A stretch of 64,000 nucleotides of DNA, taken from the UHGV virus genome UHGV-1352483, one strand, 5' to 3'. Shown here piece by piece: positions 840-61,438 of this stretch. The notes under the pieces were generated by a model, which saw only the letters and a list, made by a program, of their open reading frames with translations, made no database searches and was not told the origin of the DNA. Each line of letters begins with the position of its first letter. Position 1 is the first letter of the stretch. The position numbers were made by a program, and so were the translations under genes. This DNA comes from a virus.

Positions 840-1234
840 ATCTGATGCTTGAGTTCTTCTTATTAGGATTGATAGGAGGACTCTTGGGTATATTCTATAG
901 GAATTGCCTGAAACCTAGGAATATGATATTCAATTGGTGGTACTATAATGTCTTAGAGCATTGGGTAATTGAAGGACACTTATGTGTTGCCACTAAGTGG
1001 GATAAGTTCAAAAGATGGATTGCATTTCCATTAGGATATTGTATCTATTGCAGTGCAACTTGGATAACATTCTTCCTATGTATAATATACCTTTCAAGTT
1101 GGGAAGTTCTACCTAAATGGCAGGATATTCTGATAGGAATTATATTTGCCAGTGGTATCCAGCATTTAGTAGTATGTATAGCATGCAGGTTCCTTATAAA
1201 GGGGCATCATGATTTGGATAATGATATAGAATAA
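830..1234 (+). CDS. small multi-pass membrane protein
   Basis: The 134-aa ORF is dominated by hydrophobic segments (LLGLIGGLLGIF, ITFFLCIIYL, ILIGIIFASGI) and overlaps the upstream ORF by a few nt. Confidence 0.45.
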   Translation: MWLNLMLEFFLLGLIGGLLGIFYRNCLKPRNMIFNWWYYNVLEHWVIEGHLCVATKWDKFKRWIAFPLGYCIYCSATWITFFLCIIYLSSWEVLPKWQDILIGIIFASGIQHLVVCIACRFLIKGHHDLDNDIE

Positions 1235-1292
1235 GTTAAAATAATGTTAAACTCCTCTTTATATTTGCATATATCGGGGAGTTTACTTTACT

Positions 1293-2741
1293 TTGCAAAG
1301 TAATAATCAATTAAAGGAGATAAATGAAATGAATAAAGTAAATCCGTCAATAAAGAAATCAACTAGATTTGATACTGAAAGATTGGCTGGTGGTTCAGGA
1401 GCTTTAGTAGCTAAACAGAATAATACAGCATTGTTGAAAAGAGCAGTCCTCGCTAATTTATTATGGGAGGATATAGCTTATATGGATGGAGAATCTGTAG
1501 CTGATGAAATCAAGAGATTGATACCATTATGCCCTGCTGAAGATGTATATGATATAGCTTTGGCTGCAAGAACAGAACAGAAGTTAAGACATACTCCATT
1601 GTTCCTTGCATCAGAAATGTGTAAATATCCTGAACATAAACTATTTGTTTCAGACTTGTTGCCTAGGATAATTACAAGAGCGGATATGCTTGCTGATTTT
1701 CTTGCTATTTATTGGAAGGAAGGTAAGAAACCTATTGCCAATCAAGCAAAGAAAGGTCTTGCGGAAGCCTTTCATAATTTCAATGAATACAAGTTTGCAA
1801 AGTATGATAGGGAATCGGAAATCAAACTGAGGGATGTTTTATTTCTTGTTCATCCTAAACCGAATAATGCAGATGAGGAAGCTCTCTTCAAGAAGATTGC
1901 AGAGAGAAATTTGAGGACTCCCGATACATGGGAGGTAGCATTGTCAGCAGAAGGGAATAAGAAAGAAACATGGGTCAGATTGATTGAAGAAGGTAAGATA
2001 GGAGGACTTGCAATGCTGAGGAATATATCAAATATGATGAAAGCAAGTGTACCGATAAAAGTTATTGAAGAGGGACTAAACAGTATTCAATCTTCAATGC
2101 TCTTACCTTTTGATTTCCTTAAAGCATTCAAACAGAATCCTCAGTTTAGAAGACAGATTGAAGATGCAATGTTAAGTTCTTATGAACACCTTCCTAAACT
2201 TCCAGGCAGAACTCTATTTATATTGGACTGTTCAGGTTCAATGACAGCAAATCTGTCATATAGGTCTCAGCTTACAAGGCTTGATGCTGCAAAAGCTATG
2301 GCTATGCTGGCTATAAACCAATGTGAGGATTATGAGCTTGTATGTACAGCAGGAAATGATAGTAGAAAAAAAGGAGCTCACACAATAATCAATTATCCCT
2401 CAAGAGGATTTGATTTGCTAAGACAGATAGATGATACAAGTCATTTGATAGGTGGAGGAGGAATATTCACAAGACAATGTTTGGAATGGTGTAAGAGTAA
2501 ATATGCAGCAGGGGAACCTTTTGAGAGAATAATAGTATTCTCTGACTCTCAGGACTGTGATTATCCTGAAAAGAGAGTTCCCAAACCATTTGGGAAATAC
2601 AATTATATCTGTGATGTTTCATCAGAACTTAAAGGTGTAGACTATAAGGGAATATGGACAGCGGAAATAAGTAGTTTCAGTGCACATTTCCTTACCTATA
2701 TTGCAGCTATGGAAGGTCTGGAAAATAGATTTGAGGAATAA
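1293..2741 (+). CDS. rsr: Ro60/TROVE-domain + vWA protein (Rsr-like)
   Basis: The C-terminal vWA has the MIDAS motif LFILDCSGSM, then AAKAMAML and RIIVFSDSQD. These parallel the human Ro60 blocks FLLAVDVSASM, AAAMCMVV and VFIVFTDNET. N-terminal segments LAMLRNISNMMKASV, LFLVHPKP and RHTPLFLASEMC parallel Ro60 LLRNLGKMTANSV, LRLSHLKP and TTKQEPMLFALAIC, compared against the remembered human sequence. Two tRNA-like RNAs lie immediately downstream. Confidence 0.75.
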   Translation: MQSNNQLKEINEMNKVNPSIKKSTRFDTERLAGGSGALVAKQNNTALLKRAVLANLLWEDIAYMDGESVADEIKRLIPLCPAEDVYDIALAARTEQKLRHTPLFLASEMCKYPEHKLFVSDLLPRIITRADMLADFLAIYWKEGKKPIANQAKKGLAEAFHNFNEYKFAKYDRESEIKLRDVLFLVHPKPNNADEEALFKKIAERNLRTPDTWEVALSAEGNKKETWVRLIEEGKIGGLAMLRNISNMMKASVPIKVIEEGLNSIQSSMLLPFDFLKAFKQNPQFRRQIEDAMLSSYEHLPKLPGRTLFILDCSGSMTANLSYRSQLTRLDAAKAMAMLAINQCEDYELVCTAGNDSRKKGAHTIINYPSRGFDLLRQIDDTSHLIGGGGIFTRQCLEWCKSKYAAGEPFERIIVFSDSQDCDYPEKRVPKPFGKYNYICDVSSELKGVDYKGIWTAEISSFSAHFLTYIAAMEGLENRFEE

Positions 2742-2841
2742 GATAAAGAAAAAGTACCATTAGTGATTATTAGGGTTACTTCTATAATAATTTGAACAGG
2801 TCAAAACAATACCCTAATGACTGTTCTATGGTACTAATATG

Positions 2842-2971
2842 AAGGGGATAGCTCAGTCTGGTAGAGCACGTATAATACTGTATCTATTGTTATCATCTTT
2901 GGATGTATTGCTGATACAGTTACTTCAGGCTTTTAACCTTGTGGTCGTAGGTTCAAATCCTACTCCCCTTC
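2842..2971 (+). ncRNA. tRNA-like RNA with a ~55-nt insertion (candidate Y RNA / YrlA-like tRNA mimic)
   Basis: Perfect 7-bp acceptor stem AAGGGGA (2842-2848) with TCCCCTT (2964-2970). Canonical positions 8-9 TA. D-arm GCTC-AGTCTGGTA-GAGC (2851-2867). T-arm GTAGG-TTCAAAT-CCTAC (2947-2963). Lys-like anticodon loop CTTTTAA on a weak stem, then a 5-nt variable loop. About 55 extra nt containing an 8-bp hairpin (ACTGTATC/GATACAGT) sit between the D-arm and the anticodon stem, so it is not a canonical tRNA. Confidence 0.6.
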
Positions 2972-2976
2972 CTATA

Positions 2977-3107
2977 GGGGCATGTTACTCTCTGGTATTT
3001 CTAATGAACCTAGGATTAATTAGGATATCAACAGGTGGGAGAGTATCTTATATCTCTGAAATGCAAATAGGAGATTAATAAGTGAGGTTCGAGTCCTCCA
3101 TGCTCCT
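2977..3107 (+). ncRNA. second tandem tRNA-like element (degenerate; candidate second Y RNA-like RNA)
   Basis: Starts 5 nt after the first element. The 7-bp acceptor-like stem GGGGCAT (2977-2983) pairs with ATGCTCC (3100-3106) with one G.U pair. T-arm TGAGG-TTCGAGT-CCTCC (3083-3099) has a canonical TTCGAGT loop. No canonical D or anticodon arm was found between them. Confidence 0.35.
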
Positions 3108-3262
3108 CAATTAAAGAAAAAAAAAAATAAGATTAGTGTATTTAACGCTTACTTCAATTAATCAGTGCAGAATATAAAAATAGCGTTATAACTGTTCTAC
3201 CTTATTATCAAGCCTACTATTCAATAAAAAGAGTAGTAGGCTTTCTTTATTTATAGGATACT

Positions 3263-3634
3263 GTGTTATTATATATGAATAATGAAGTTAAAGTAAGTCT
3301 TACTGTTGTTCTTCCAGGAAGAACTATGGTAAGCCAGCAGGTGGCTGAAAACAAACCATTAGAGAGCTATGATACCATTGTAGTTGAACTTTGGGATAAG
3401 GAAGTACAGAAAAGGGAAAGGATGTTTGTAAAAGTAAGAAAGTCTATTCCTGCCAAACAGTCTATCAATCTTTCTGTGGATGCCTATAAATATATGGTGT
3501 CTGATGAAGCCCCTTATTTTATTAAGTCAAAGGTCTGGAAAGCCATGAATATAAAGAACAGACTTGAAGCTCACTTACAGAAGATTTGTGAACAATTAAA
3601 TGGTATATCATATACCTATGAGGTGTTAAACTAA
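3263..3634 (+). CDS. hypothetical protein
   Basis: 123-aa ORF with no recognisable motifs. Followed by an A11 tract and the next start codon. Confidence 0.4.
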   Translation: MLLYMNNEVKVSLTVVLPGRTMVSQQVAENKPLESYDTIVVELWDKEVQKRERMFVKVRKSIPAKQSINLSVDAYKYMVSDEAPYFIKSKVWKAMNIKNRLEAHLQKICEQLNGISYTYEVLN

Positions 3635-3644
3635 AAAAAAAAAC

Positions 3645-4145
3645 ATGGGAATAACAAAATGGACTCCTGAAATGGAGACAGAATTAAAACATTGTATAGA
3701 GCAACATGGGTGGTCATTAGGCACAGAAGCATTTAGAGCTTTACATCCTTCAATGTCTTATAGTGCATGTGCAAGCAAATGGTACATGTTCAAAAATAAT
3801 GGAGCTACCCATAGAAACCCTCGTGGAAAAGCAAGACTTCTAATCAGGGATAATATTGAGTTCATTAAAGAAGTAATATCTGAAAATCCTGATAACTTAA
3901 GAAGAGCTTTCAACATTATATCCAGAGAATTGAATATTGGAATTTCATATGTACAGGGTTGCTGGTATAATCATGAAAATTCTCCTATGCATAGAAGTAG
4001 GATAGGAAGCTGCTTTATGACTGTTGGCAAAAGAATGGGTGACAATACCAAGAATATAGCAGGAGATGCTTCATATTCTGTTGATTCTAAGGTATATGAG
4101 AAAGCTATTAAGAGGACTCTTAAGAACATTATACATGATAAGTAA
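3645..4145 (+). CDS. hypothetical protein, possible SANT/Myb-like HTH
   Basis: The start codon follows TAA-A11-C (3633-3644). The N-terminal WTPEMETELKHCIEQHGW...W spacing resembles a Myb/SANT repeat. Weak call. Confidence 0.4.
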   Translation: MGITKWTPEMETELKHCIEQHGWSLGTEAFRALHPSMSYSACASKWYMFKNNGATHRNPRGKARLLIRDNIEFIKEVISENPDNLRRAFNIISRELNIGISYVQGCWYNHENSPMHRSRIGSCFMTVGKRMGDNTKNIAGDASYSVDSKVYEKAIKRTLKNIIHDK

Positions 4146-4355: not shown

Positions 4356-4819
4356 AGAAATTTCTATTGATTTATAGTATCCTCATTACAGCTGTATTTG
4401 GATTCTATTTTCTGTATAAGGAACATAAGGCAGTACCGGAATCTATGGAAGTAGGAGTAGTATTAGCCCAACCTGAGTTCCTGTTTAAGGAACTGAATGA
4501 TTCCATACTTATGCTGGCTTGTGAACACTATGGCTTAAAGGAGCCTAAGATAGTAACAGCCCAAGCTATATTGGAGACAGGGTGGTTCAGGTCTAAAGTA
4601 TTCAGAGAATATAATAACCCATTTGGACTGTTCAATAGCAGGACTATGCAGTATTTCAGATTCAGGCATTGGTCTGATGCTGTTATAATGTACAGGGATA
4701 ATATACAGAAAAGACTCAAGAGGAATGAGGACTATTATAATTTCCTTAAAAGGATAGGATATGCGGAAGACGAAGATTATATCAATAAAGTAAAGGCTTT
4801 AACTGATAGTCTTAGATGA
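4352..4819 (+). CDS. membrane-anchored glucosaminidase-family peptidoglycan hydrolase
   Basis: N-terminal TM helix (LLIYSILITAVFGFYFLY). The motif AQAILETGWFRS...NNPFGLFN matches the FlgJ/mannosyl-glycoprotein endo-beta-N-acetylglucosaminidase signature AQAxLESGWG...NNLFGIK. Confidence 0.6.
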   Translation: MKKFLLIYSILITAVFGFYFLYKEHKAVPESMEVGVVLAQPEFLFKELNDSILMLACEHYGLKEPKIVTAQAILETGWFRSKVFREYNNPFGLFNSRTMQYFRFRHWSDAVIMYRDNIQKRLKRNEDYYNFLKRIGYAEDEDYINKVKALTDSLR

Positions 4820-4839: not shown

Positions 4840-5193
4840 ATGGAAATCAAGAGATTGAATATAAAATGGATTGATAAGGAAAATTTCATTTATACAGATA
4901 AAGAAGGGAAGGAGTTTTCCTACAAATGGATAGATGGAGGGAAATATTTCTCCAATAGAGGGGGACAGGCCAACGACCTTATATTTGATAGGGCTGTAGG
5001 AAATAAAGAGCAGAAGAGGCAATTCACACAGGAAGTTCTTGGGTATTGTGAAGGAGGGGATTTTCCTGTATGTTATTCCCTTGAAGATGCTACCAAATTA
5101 GTAAATGCCCTTAGAAAAGAATATCCTTGCTCAATTACTTCCTGTATAGTTGAAGACGAAGATGATGAAATAAAGCTTGATTTTTGTATTTAA
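4840..5193 (+). CDS. hypothetical protein
   Basis: In-frame with track ORF 4816..5193. The ATG at 4840 follows A9 (4827-4835) and is the more likely start. Confidence 0.4.
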   Translation: MEIKRLNIKWIDKENFIYTDKEGKEFSYKWIDGGKYFSNRGGQANDLIFDRAVGNKEQKRQFTQEVLGYCEGGDFPVCYSLEDATKLVNALRKEYPCSITSCIVEDEDDEIKLDFCI

Positions 5194-6750: not shown

Positions 6751-7340
6751 TAGTAACAATAGATGAACAAAAGTGTGAGAAGAGTGGAATATCATTTCCT
6801 CAGGTACTAGCTATACTGTTGGTAAAGTCTGGTGTAGAACTTCCTAAGTTATTTACAGAATTGGAGGAAAAGAAGATTCTCGTAAGGGATGATATATTTG
6901 GAGGATATCTGGTAACTCAAAGATGGGATGATATAGTATCCAATATCATATTGGATTCTGATAAGGGAAGTCAGTCTGTAGACAGGCTTGATAACCTTGC
7001 AACAGAATTGATGAAGATATTTCCAGAAGGAAGGAAAGAGGGGTCTTCACAATATTGGAGAGGCAATAGGAAAGATATTACTTTGAGGTTGAAGAAGTTC
7101 TTTAAGCTTTATGGCAATAAATGGAAAGACAGGGAGATACTGGATGCAGCCAGAAGATATATTGAATCATTCAATGGGAACTATTCTTATATGAGAGTAT
7201 TGAAGTATTTTATATGGAAGGATGAAAGGAAGATGGATGAAAACGGGGATATGTATATTGACCCTAAATCTGACCTTGCAACCTTGCTTGAGAATGAGGA
7301 TACCGTACTTTCAGGAGACTGGACTAGTGAATTAAATTAA
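6747..7340 (+). CDS. hypothetical protein
   Basis: 197-aa ORF translationally coupled to the helicase by an ATGA overlap. Confidence 0.4.
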   Translation: MIVTIDEQKCEKSGISFPQVLAILLVKSGVELPKLFTELEEKKILVRDDIFGGYLVTQRWDDIVSNIILDSDKGSQSVDRLDNLATELMKIFPEGRKEGSSQYWRGNRKDITLRLKKFFKLYGNKWKDREILDAARRYIESFNGNYSYMRVLKYFIWKDERKMDENGDMYIDPKSDLATLLENEDTVLSGDWTSELN

Positions 7341-60419: not shown

Positions 60420-61438
60420 TCTTTTAATTTGGCTTCAATAGCAAACTTAAGTTCTTGATTCTTAGGATTGTTCAAATACTTAGCTGCAATATTCAATACT
60501 GGTTCTTCATTATGTCCACATAATGGAGAATTATCACTCTTTAAATAAAGATATCCACCTCTGTTAGATATAATCCCTGCTTCTACAGCCCTCTTAATCA
60601 ATACTTTAGTAGGTAACATAGGGTCTGTAATAACTCTAAGGAACATCTTACTGTCAGCTTGAATAAGCTCGTTTGCTTTTGTCTGTAAGAATTCTAGCTT
60701 AGTGTTAACTGACATAGGTCTTCCATCAATAGCTTCTATGATGGTTCTCAGGATATCTGCATCATTTTCTACTTTACCAAATTCCTTATAACATCTCATT
60801 GTACTGCTCATGTTATCCTTAGCAGTCTTGACTTCTTCTCCATCAGAGATAATGACAAACTGATAAGTAGCTTTAAAATGGTCTTCCATTTCCTGCATGG
60901 AAGGTGCTATATAGTCCTTATTGGCAAGTAATACTTTATATCTTATATAATCATCAGGAGAAGCCAGGTTGAATACATTATCTTGCTTATGTAAGGGAAC
61001 CTGGAAATTATCCCAATAATTATCTTTCTTTCTATAAATACTAAGGGCATCATATTCTAAGCCCATTATTTCCTCAAGGAATGCTTTTTCCTCATTTGTG
61101 AGAACATTAACATACATACCTGATTTAAGTACAGGTACAGTAAAGGTTCTTACTGCATTTTCAGCCATACCCCCATATAAAATATGTTTAGGGTTAGTGA
61201 CCATTCCAACTCTTGGAATATGCCTTACTGTAATTTTCTCATTCCTAAGACAACTTACTGTTGCTTTAGCTGATGATTGAACTCTAGCTCTCGTAAGAGG
61301 TTTATCATAAATAGTTGGTTCCTCTCTCTCATTAACAACTACTTCTGTAGTTGGCAATTCTGATACTGTTTCATCATCTACTGAAAATTCAGGTGCACTA
61401 TAATCTACTGTTTCTTCTACTTTTCCTTTTGTAGCCAT
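60416..61438 (-). CDS. structural protein
   Basis: 340 aa, ATGA overlap with the downstream gene. Confidence 0.4.
   Translation of the reverse strand: MATKGKVEETVDYSAPEFSVDDETVSELPTTEVVVNEREEPTIYDKPLTRARVQSSAKATVSCLRNEKITVRHIPRVGMVTNPKHILYGGMAENAVRTFTVPVLKSGMYVNVLTNEEKAFLEEIMGLEYDALSIYRKKDNYWDNFQVPLHKQDNVFNLASPDDYIRYKVLLANKDYIAPSMQEMEDHFKATYQFVIISDGEEVKTAKDNMSSTMRCYKEFGKVENDADILRTIIEAIDGRPMSVNTKLEFLQTKANELIQADSKMFLRVITDPMLPTKVLIKRAVEAGIISNRGGYLYLKSDNSPLCGHNEEPVLNIAAKYLNNPKNQELKFAIEAKLKE

Follow-up and report, generated by a model that had tools for sequence, protein, structure and literature searches.

Conservation of Ro60 and its Y RNAs extends from bacteria to humans, and in the human gut crAss001-type phages rank with the most abundant viruses. 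Here we describe a locus at which the two come together, in a stretch of 64,000 nucleotides (nt) of the virus genome UHGV-1352483 (hereafter the window), which derives from a crAss-like phage of the Steigviridae/Asinivirinae. Our subject is a degenerate transfer RNA (tRNA)-like element, e2, at positions 2977-3107 of the + strand, the third of four small RNA elements (e0 to e3) that follow a phage Ro60 gene. Judged from its sequence, e2 is a real, worn-down, tRNA-shaped RNA element and a candidate gene. The reading we prefer, at a probability of about 0.6, is that e2 is transcribed and belongs, though diverged, to an array of small RNAs linked to Ro60.

The closest described systems are bacterial Y RNAs that carry a tRNA-like domain, and one phage. 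In Salmonella Typhimurium, YrlA and YrlB (RF02553) lie beside rsr, on the same strand as this Ro60 orthologue. The ends of YrlA form the Ro-binding stem while its acceptor is capped by a loop; in M. smegmatis, YrlA has an acceptor-like stem of 7 base pairs (bp) and is cleaved by RNase P and extended with CCA in vivo, and in D. radiodurans Yrn1 and Yrn2 are made as a single precursor together with a tRNA, tRNA-Asp (PMC4201824). The Ro60 protein of Thermus phage phiLo binds two adjacent stem-bulge-stem RNAs, Yrl1 and Yrl2, and assembles with the host PNPase, which it has been proposed to hijack (PMC12135203). The locus in the window shares with the Salmonella one the presence of several small RNAs by a Ro60 orthologue on the same strand, and with phiLo a Ro60 protein encoded by the phage itself.

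Within e2, the top half of a tRNA is readily recognised. The element and its parts are as follows.

2977-3107, + strand: e2, degenerate tRNA-like element, from sequence, fold, descriptor scan, a match to model R1 (see below) and position
2977-2983 and 3100-3106, + strand: 5' and 3' strands of the e2 acceptor, with discriminator T3107
2986-3045, + strand: long arm of e2, basal helix 2986-2993 with 3038-3045
3053-3074, + strand: hairpin at the anticodon position of e2, 5 bp with a 12-nt loop
3083-3099, + strand: T arm of e2, loop 3088-3094

The acceptor pairs GGGGCAT with ATGCTCC over 7 bp, with a single G.U at pair 3-70. The T arm has a canonical 7-nt loop, TTCGAGT, closed by G3087-C3095, on a stem of four Watson-Crick pairs and one U.C mismatch. 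In an alternative register G2984 pairs with C3099, which gives an 8-bp acceptor and an 8/4 arrangement; in both registers the coaxial stack of acceptor and T arm measures 12 bp, a tRNA-like length. Neither the sequence nor the fold of 2977-3107 contains a D arm or a 7-nt anticodon loop. At the D-arm position stands instead a hairpin of 60 nt (2986-3045) whose basal helix is UACUCUCU/GGGAGAGUA, and at the anticodon-arm position a 5-bp stem (3053-3057 with 3070-3074) with a loop of 12 nt in place of the normal 7. An earlier note, made from the letters of this DNA, had described the acceptor-like helix with its one G.U pair, the canonical T arm and the lack of recognisable D and anticodon arms, and this description is borne out in full. 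The minimum-free-energy fold of e2 is a four-arm cloverleaf of -39.1 kcal/mol (z = -2.4; 4 of 200 shuffles were equally stable). The word "degenerate" fits e2: it has kept the tRNA top half and the cloverleaf, and has lost the D stem and a recognisable form of the module, described below, that its relatives carry.

To put a number on the likeness, we used a descriptor that looks for G-TTCRANN-C on a T stem no shorter than 4 bp, directly adjoined by a 7-bp acceptor in which no more than one pair is G.U, the whole spanning 60-200 nt. Across the window, both strands included, it matched only e2 and the preceding element e1 (2842-2970), against a mean of 0.04 matches per window in 300 Markov shuffles. 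The two stand in tandem on the same strand, as the earlier note had seen: e1 has the end of its acceptor at 2970 and its discriminator at 2971, which leaves a gap of 5-6 nt. ARAGORN called no tRNA and no transfer-messenger RNA (tmRNA) gene across the window, and Rfam gave no match in it at gathering score. When Rfam was searched permissively (E<=10) over 2700-3300, no match fell on e2, including those of RF00005 tRNA and of tmRNA, and all matches in this region were sub-threshold, with tRNA at 22 bits on the 3' half of e1, YrlA at 17 bits and other noise. The 64 kb of the window lack a tmRNA and canonical tRNAs altogether.

We compared the locus with relatives in the form of 59 IMG/VR loci retrieved via the Ro protein. 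Three models were built, namely R1 for one class of tRNA-like element (class 2), R2 for the shared module only and R3 for a hairpin type; R3 and the class-2 alignment were made without window sequence. As a control for pairing, the same helices were scored with their partners slid. At least one tRNA-like element of 100-200 nt lies downstream of the Ro gene in 52 of the 59 loci, and these elements, 125-148 nt in length, are of two kinds. Class 1 is marked by a canonical D arm, with acceptors such as GGAGGGA, GAGGAGT and GGGGATA, its member in the window having AAGGGGA. Class 2 has no canonical D arm, and its acceptors include GGGGATG, GGGGGTG, GGCGGAG and GGGGGAG. In the class-2 alignment (37 sequences; six helices, from RNAalifold plus one added manually), 98% of cells pair, compared with 42-50% in the slid control, and 22 of 32 pairs show compensatory change. 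The earlier note had allowed that the stems might prove unconserved in homologous phages and the likeness to tRNA fortuitous; what we find are conserved, covarying elements at the same place.

Common to both classes is a module made of a stem (stem B), an internal loop, a short bulged-U helix (GUUCU ... U-AG-UG) and the invariant motif UUACUUCA; over its 33 aligned sequences, 97% of cells pair versus 31-53% when slid. The hairpin type consists of the same module in the form of 56-91-nt hairpins, the ends of which form a further stem (stem A), for example AUGCCAU-UAGUG-...AGAU-UUACAUCAA...AUCU...UGUUCU-AUGGCAU. Here, 91% of cells pair in an alignment of 16 sequences (34-49% slid), with compensatory changes in 16 of 17 pairs, and all 114 matches of R3 over the 59 loci are on the Ro strand. 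The order of the module is stem A, bulged U, AG/CU pairs, internal loop, stem B and then UUACUUCA. Since the tRNA-like and hairpin types share this module in permuted connectivity, the tRNA-like elements are circular permutations of the hairpin type: in the permuted form a loop closes stem A, and where the hairpin has its apical loop there is a tRNA-like body, the acceptor ends of which are free.

The Ro gene and the other members of the array in the window are these.

1326-2741, + strand: gene of a Ro60/TROVE protein (plus weak vWA), 471 amino acids from ATG 1326
2754-2834, + strand: e0, hairpin-type Y-RNA-like element (R3, 67.7 bits, E=6e-14, whole-window search)
2842-2971, + strand: e1, class-1 tRNA-like element (R1, 41.3 bits, E=2e-7)
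3127-3205, + strand: e3, hairpin-type Y-RNA-like element (R3, 59.4 bits, E=6e-12; synteny)
3210-3253, + strand: intrinsic-terminator-like hairpin of 13 bp followed by a T tract, closing the unit of Ro gene, e0, e1, e2 and e3

Gene, elements and terminator follow one another head to tail on the + strand in the order Ro gene, e0, e1, e2, e3, terminator, and the site after e3, called at 3210-3243, is the sole terminator-like one on this strand in 1000-3700. From the stop of the Ro open reading frame (ORF) to the start of e2, both on the + strand, it is 236 nt, which lies inside the distance of about 4 kb expected between a YrlA-type RNA and its Ro60/TROVE gene. The ORF starts at TTG 1293 in the ORF listing; we adopted ATG 1326 for the 471-residue protein, and a database protein is 100% identical to it at 471 residues. 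Profile matches are to Pfam TROVE (E=1.3e-15), weakly to vWA, and to phrog_850 ("RNA-binding protein", E=7e-28), and residues 41-414 match the structure of the phiLo Ro60 protein (PDB 9KOP/9L5Y, E=4e-18). The gene is about 70% identical at the nucleotide level to crAss001 gp96, annotated as "TROVE domain-containing protein", as well as to its counterparts in the cr106_1, cr112_1 and PhiCrAssBcn phages.

In e0, the closing stem GUACCAU/AUGGUAC is followed by the bulged U, the AG/CU pairs, an internal loop UG / UGUU and a second stem AUUAGGG/CCCUAAU, and the apical loop has UUACUUC on its 5' side; the minimum-free-energy fold of e0 is the structure of the R3 model. The layout of e3 is AUAAGAU-UAGUG-...AACGC-UUACUUCAA...GCGUU...UGUUCU-ACCUUAU, and e3 is orthologous to the AAAGAUUAGUG hairpin that trails class-2 elements in crAss001-like phages. 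R3 matches e0 and e3 only in the window. These two hairpins flank both tRNA-like elements, and they carry the module as UAGUG / UGUUCU / UUACUUCA. Element e1 combines the acceptor AAGGGGA/TCCCCTT, a canonical D arm, an anticodon-like arm with the loop CUUUUAA and a T arm with a module insert at 2877-2927 (R2, 31.1 bits, E=4.5e-5); inside the motif it has GUUAU/UAUUG instead of GUUCU/UAGUG, a compensatory change from C-G to A-U. A blastn search with e1 found homologues behind the Ro gene in 19 loci.

None of e0-e3 is covered by an Rfam family, and in RefSeq the records for crAss001 and cr106_1 show no annotated feature in the 0.5-0.9 kb behind the TROVE gene. In the literature we searched, no work linked Ro60 or Y RNA to crAss-like phages or described tRNA-like RNAs in crAss001, though literature outside this search may differ. 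The four-RNA array behind the phage Ro60 gene is thus new to annotation, to Rfam and to the searched literature, and it fills an annotation gap behind the TROVE gene of crAss001-type phages.

The place of e2 in this array is the class-2 slot, behind a class-1 element and before an ARGAUUAGUG hairpin; among relatives, the start of such a hairpin follows a class-2-like element within 40 nt in 25 of 51 cases. All three class-2 helices (7-bp acceptor, 5-bp T arm with the loop UUCRANU and 5-bp stem at the anticodon position) are found in e2, with the U.C in the T stem and the 12-nt loop as deviations. In the acceptor, pairs 5, 6 and 7 depart on both sides from the class-2 consensus GGGGAUG/CAUCCCC with pairing kept, and the same is true of T-stem pairs 50-64 and 51-63. 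The 3' flank of e2 is T-CAA, of the form NCAA, the commonest flank in the family being A-CAA. R1 scores e2 at 14.3-14.4 bits; E is 0.28 for the 64 kb and about 0.002 when the search space is the 521-nt stretch from the Ro gene to the terminator, and the acceptor and T arm alone align. TAGTG, GTTCT and TTACTTC are all missing from e2, in which AUCUUAUA replaces UUACUUCA, and blastn of e2 against the related loci returned no homologue. We read e2, from its position and sequence, as the diverged positional counterpart of the class-2 RNAs that follow the Ro gene in crAss001-type phages, and as the most divergent and least certain member of the array.

Two further matches were dismissed. An exact 21-mer from the T arm and acceptor of e2 recurs in IMG/VR only in L062 and L063, unrelated high-GC phage tRNAs, and is a chance identity; a 14.8-bit match of R1 at 61042-61174 on the - strand lies in coding sequence, has no T arm and is likewise put down to chance.

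How variable e2 is within its species could be seen in 14 contigs (L064-L077) from a cluster of Ro proteins at 90% identity. The element is invariant in all 14, the intergenic region is nearly identical, and polymorphism in variable regions, at 0.2-1.75% of sites, is too low to reveal constraint. In a set of 5.8 billion proteins, the Ro homologue that comes next has 74% identity, and these collections contain no intermediate lineage. Of the covariation that the earlier note had proposed to look for, the family helices provide ample examples, and the long arm of e2, an element invariant in its own species, provides none.

Set beside the described systems, the array shows both likeness and difference. 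The earlier comparison of e2 and its neighbour with the paired YrlA/YrlB RNAs holds as far as context goes, with a Ro60/TROVE gene upstream on the same strand and covarying elements in homologous phages. The array has a tRNA-like domain with a canonical T arm, as YrlA does (the D arm being present in e1 and absent from e2), and a stem-internal loop-stem module as the presumed protein site. The analogy fails in several particulars. There are four elements rather than two, with e2 lacking the module; the best YrlA match (2814-2899, over e0/e1) reaches at most 17 bits where gathering demands 69, and none falls on e2; and of the YrlA motif GNCGAAN0-1G, or the metazoan GGUCCGA, there is no trace in 2742-3262, which contain no CGAA and no GGTCYGA. 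The topology is also reversed, since the ends of YrlA lie in its Ro-binding stem and its acceptor is loop-capped (PMC4201824), whereas in the phage tRNA-like elements it is the acceptor that the ends form and the module that carries the cap. Only the hairpin-type e0 and e3 have their ends in the module stem; e2 and all class-1 and class-2 relatives end in the acceptor.

With the M. smegmatis and D. radiodurans RNAs the array has in common an acceptor-like stem of the kind that serves as a tRNA-processing substrate, and a resemblance to polycistronic precursors punctuated by tRNA-type structures. Cleavage of the mycobacterial RNA cuts one RNA in two; in the phage elements the acceptor holds the natural ends, so that whole RNAs would be released. 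Different from the array described here, the phiLo Yrls lie upstream of the Ro60 gene, carry the CGAA motif and have no reported tRNA likeness (PMC12135203). Finally, e2 recalls the tRNA-like domain of tmRNA in being essentially an acceptor/T stack with a canonical T loop and G3.U70. Unlike tmRNA, it has no detected mRNA-like part or pseudoknots and is called by neither ARAGORN nor Rfam, and the G.U is not conserved in its homologues. By its sequence, then, e2 stands outside Rfam YrlA (on score, GNCGAA motif and topology alike), outside tRNA and outside tmRNA, and it would be most like the bacterial tRNA-like Y RNAs in its way of working.

Several findings weigh against the reading of e2 as a diverged but working array member, and the chief rival, that e2 is a functionless, decaying relic of a class-2 RNA which lost its D stem and module through deletion or recombination, draws on the same findings. 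R1 is weak on e2, with 14 bits compared with the 30-53 it gives to ordinary 72-nt tRNAs of relatives, and class-2 homology therefore comes mostly from synteny. R2, which finds the e1 module (31 bits), finds nothing on the + strand of e2, in keeping with AUCUUAUA in place of UUACUUCA and with the missing TAGTG and GTTCT. Because the same-species contigs are identical in this region and the next homologue is only 74% identical, there is no measurable covariation for the long arm of e2, and those 14 contigs are too uniform to reveal constraint. Broken or recombinant array copies in L029, L045 and L017, described below, are a precedent for decay. A relic would nevertheless have to account for an acceptor that is perfect over 7-8 bp although three of its pairs differ on both sides from every relative, for a fully canonical T loop including the G53-C61 closing pair, for a stack held at 12 bp through the 8/4 shift, and for a clean cloverleaf of four helices (z = -2.4), all features whose loss would be expected of a neutral copy about 30% diverged, in protein, from its closest relatives. 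The compensated acceptor and the canonical T loop thus weaken this rival, which we regard as the less probable account, if one to be taken seriously.

It is unlikely, in our estimate, that e2 is still a true Y RNA, binding Ro60 through a diverged bulged helix UAUUUCU...AGGUG flanked by UACUCUCU/GGGAGAGUA. By eye, the basal 8-bp helix of the long arm begins with ACUCU like stem B of relatives, and an internal loop, CU/AG-type pairs (C3001-G3034 and U3002-A3033) and a 3' UG (3036-3037) follow in the consensus order, in an element that adjoins the Ro gene; but the resemblance to the module is statistically undetectable, both the bulged U and the UUACUUCA motif are absent from e2, and the role of the module in Ro binding is itself putative. 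Far less probable still is the reading of e2 as a functioning tRNA, a tRNA with an intron or a small tmRNA. In its GGGG start and its G3.U70 the acceptor resembles those of tRNA-Ala and tmRNA, the T arm has the canonical form, and real tmRNA and tRNAs do occur near the Ro gene in relatives. Yet ARAGORN calls nothing in the window and Rfam matches neither tRNA nor tmRNA on e2 at E<=10, while both programs do detect the tmRNA of relative L001; e2 lacks a D arm as well as a 7-nt anticodon loop; its 131 nt fall far short of a tmRNA, with no pseudoknots or tag frame called; and the class-2 homologues have G3-C70 in place of G3.U70. We give just as little credence to the idea that the region codes for protein or that its tRNA-like features arose by chance. 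A 79-residue ATG ORF in the ORF listing (2839-3078, +) spans e1 and most of e2, but it is unconserved, the median longest overlapping ORF over 75 homologous elements being 33 residues and many having none, no gene is called there in the 14 same-species contigs, and substitutions in relatives keep helices rather than codons; we consider this ORF spurious. Chance fares no better against two abutting descriptor matches beside the Ro gene where 0.04 per window are expected.

We return, then, to e2 as a member of the Ro60-linked array. It is probably a diverged representative of the Ro-linked tRNA-like RNAs, released by tRNA-processing enzymes. The stack of acceptor and T arm is the part of a tRNA recognised by RNase P, by 3'-processing enzymes and by the CCA-adding enzyme. 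We envisage that the array and the Ro messenger RNA (mRNA) would be made as one early transcript, that host RNase P would cut at the 5' ends of the tRNA-like top halves of e1 and e2, and that the 3' ends would then be trimmed. Such processing would separate four RNAs and leave nuclease-resistant, tRNA-like ends. In crAss001, the TROVE gene is an early gene, expressed within 10 minutes of infection (PMC8375218). The module-bearing e0, e1 and e3 would be the likely partners of phage Ro60, if the module is the Ro-binding site; they may act in the manner of Y RNAs, gating Ro or tethering it to host enzymes of RNA decay or tRNA handling. What speaks for e2 as a Ro partner is its position and tRNA-like frame. 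Lacking the module, e2 would most probably serve as processing punctuation, as a mimic of the tRNA top half, or as both, rather than as a strong ligand of Ro.

A broader proposal, which is possible but tentative, is that crAss001-type phages encode a modular family of Ro60-partner RNAs that come as hairpins, wrapped round tRNAs or permuted into tRNA bodies matured like tRNAs, and that module-less mimics such as e2 are functional. In such a family, the protein-binding module would be the GUUCU/UAGUG bulged helix together with UUACUUCA. Mimics of the e2 type, with G3.U70 and an 8/4 stack, could direct RNase P processing, or alternatively could be CCA-tailed and possibly alanine-chargeable decoys for host enzymes that target tRNA.

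Taken as a whole, the array sets natural variants side by side: the module alone, a permuted module with a tRNA body, a real tRNA inside a module, and a frame without a module (e2). These variants bear on the question of what the tRNA-like domain does in bacterial Y RNAs. Since crAss001 on Bacteroides intestinalis is a culturable member of the group, the part that binds Ro and the part that recruits tRNA enzymes can be addressed by experiment. A further question is why a phage so common in the gut devotes resources to four to six RNAs of this sort.

Other variants in the relatives are also instructive. In L029 (5063-5216), the 5' half of a class-1 element is fused to the 3' half of a class-2 element at a shared AGAGTTACTTCAA, with loss of acceptor complementarity, and truncated tRNA-like copies are found in L045 (about 4480-4550) and L017 (about 4620-4700); these copies point to recombination and decay inside the arrays. 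L051 has two tRNA-like elements (4661-4769 and 4930-5087) that combine long inserts with a D arm of class-II type (GCGGAATGGTAGACGC) and in which no module can be recognised; ARAGORN does not call them, and they occupy the same genomic place as e2. Decay and module-less variants thus both occur in the family. Three loci with a Ro protein 55-57% identical to ours (L048, L049 and L052) had no R1 or R3 matches, tRNAs or Rfam hits within 3 kb either side; they neither support nor refute the reading given here, and their partner RNAs, if any, would be of another kind.

Class-1 elements, the one in the window (2927-2940) included, often carry CUUUUAA as the loop at their anticodon position, like that of tRNA-Lys UUU; in other lineages this loop reads AUGUUGA, GGGAAAA or CUUGUAA, so it varies freely and no anticodon is conserved. 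Between e2 and e3, a poly-A tract (3117-3128) ranges from about 9 to 18 A across 15 same-species contigs, while the RNA elements on either side of it are nearly invariant.

Canonical tRNAs also lie near the Ro gene in relatives, and genuine ones (ARAGORN and Rfam) occur within hairpin-type modules; for example, in L001 a module at 4421-4556 encloses tRNA-Arg tct (4448-4519), and in L034 one at 6793-6921 encloses tRNA-His gtg (6819-6891). In both, the conserved UUACUUCA continues into the 5' strand of the acceptor, and the whole resembles a precursor tRNA in which the pairing of leader and trailer is the module. Finally, two relatives have a tmRNA upstream of the Ro gene, L001 at a distance of about 450 nt (2244-2562, tag DNTYRVAA; ARAGORN and Rfam) and L061 (cr106_1) at about 2.3 kb (1-232).

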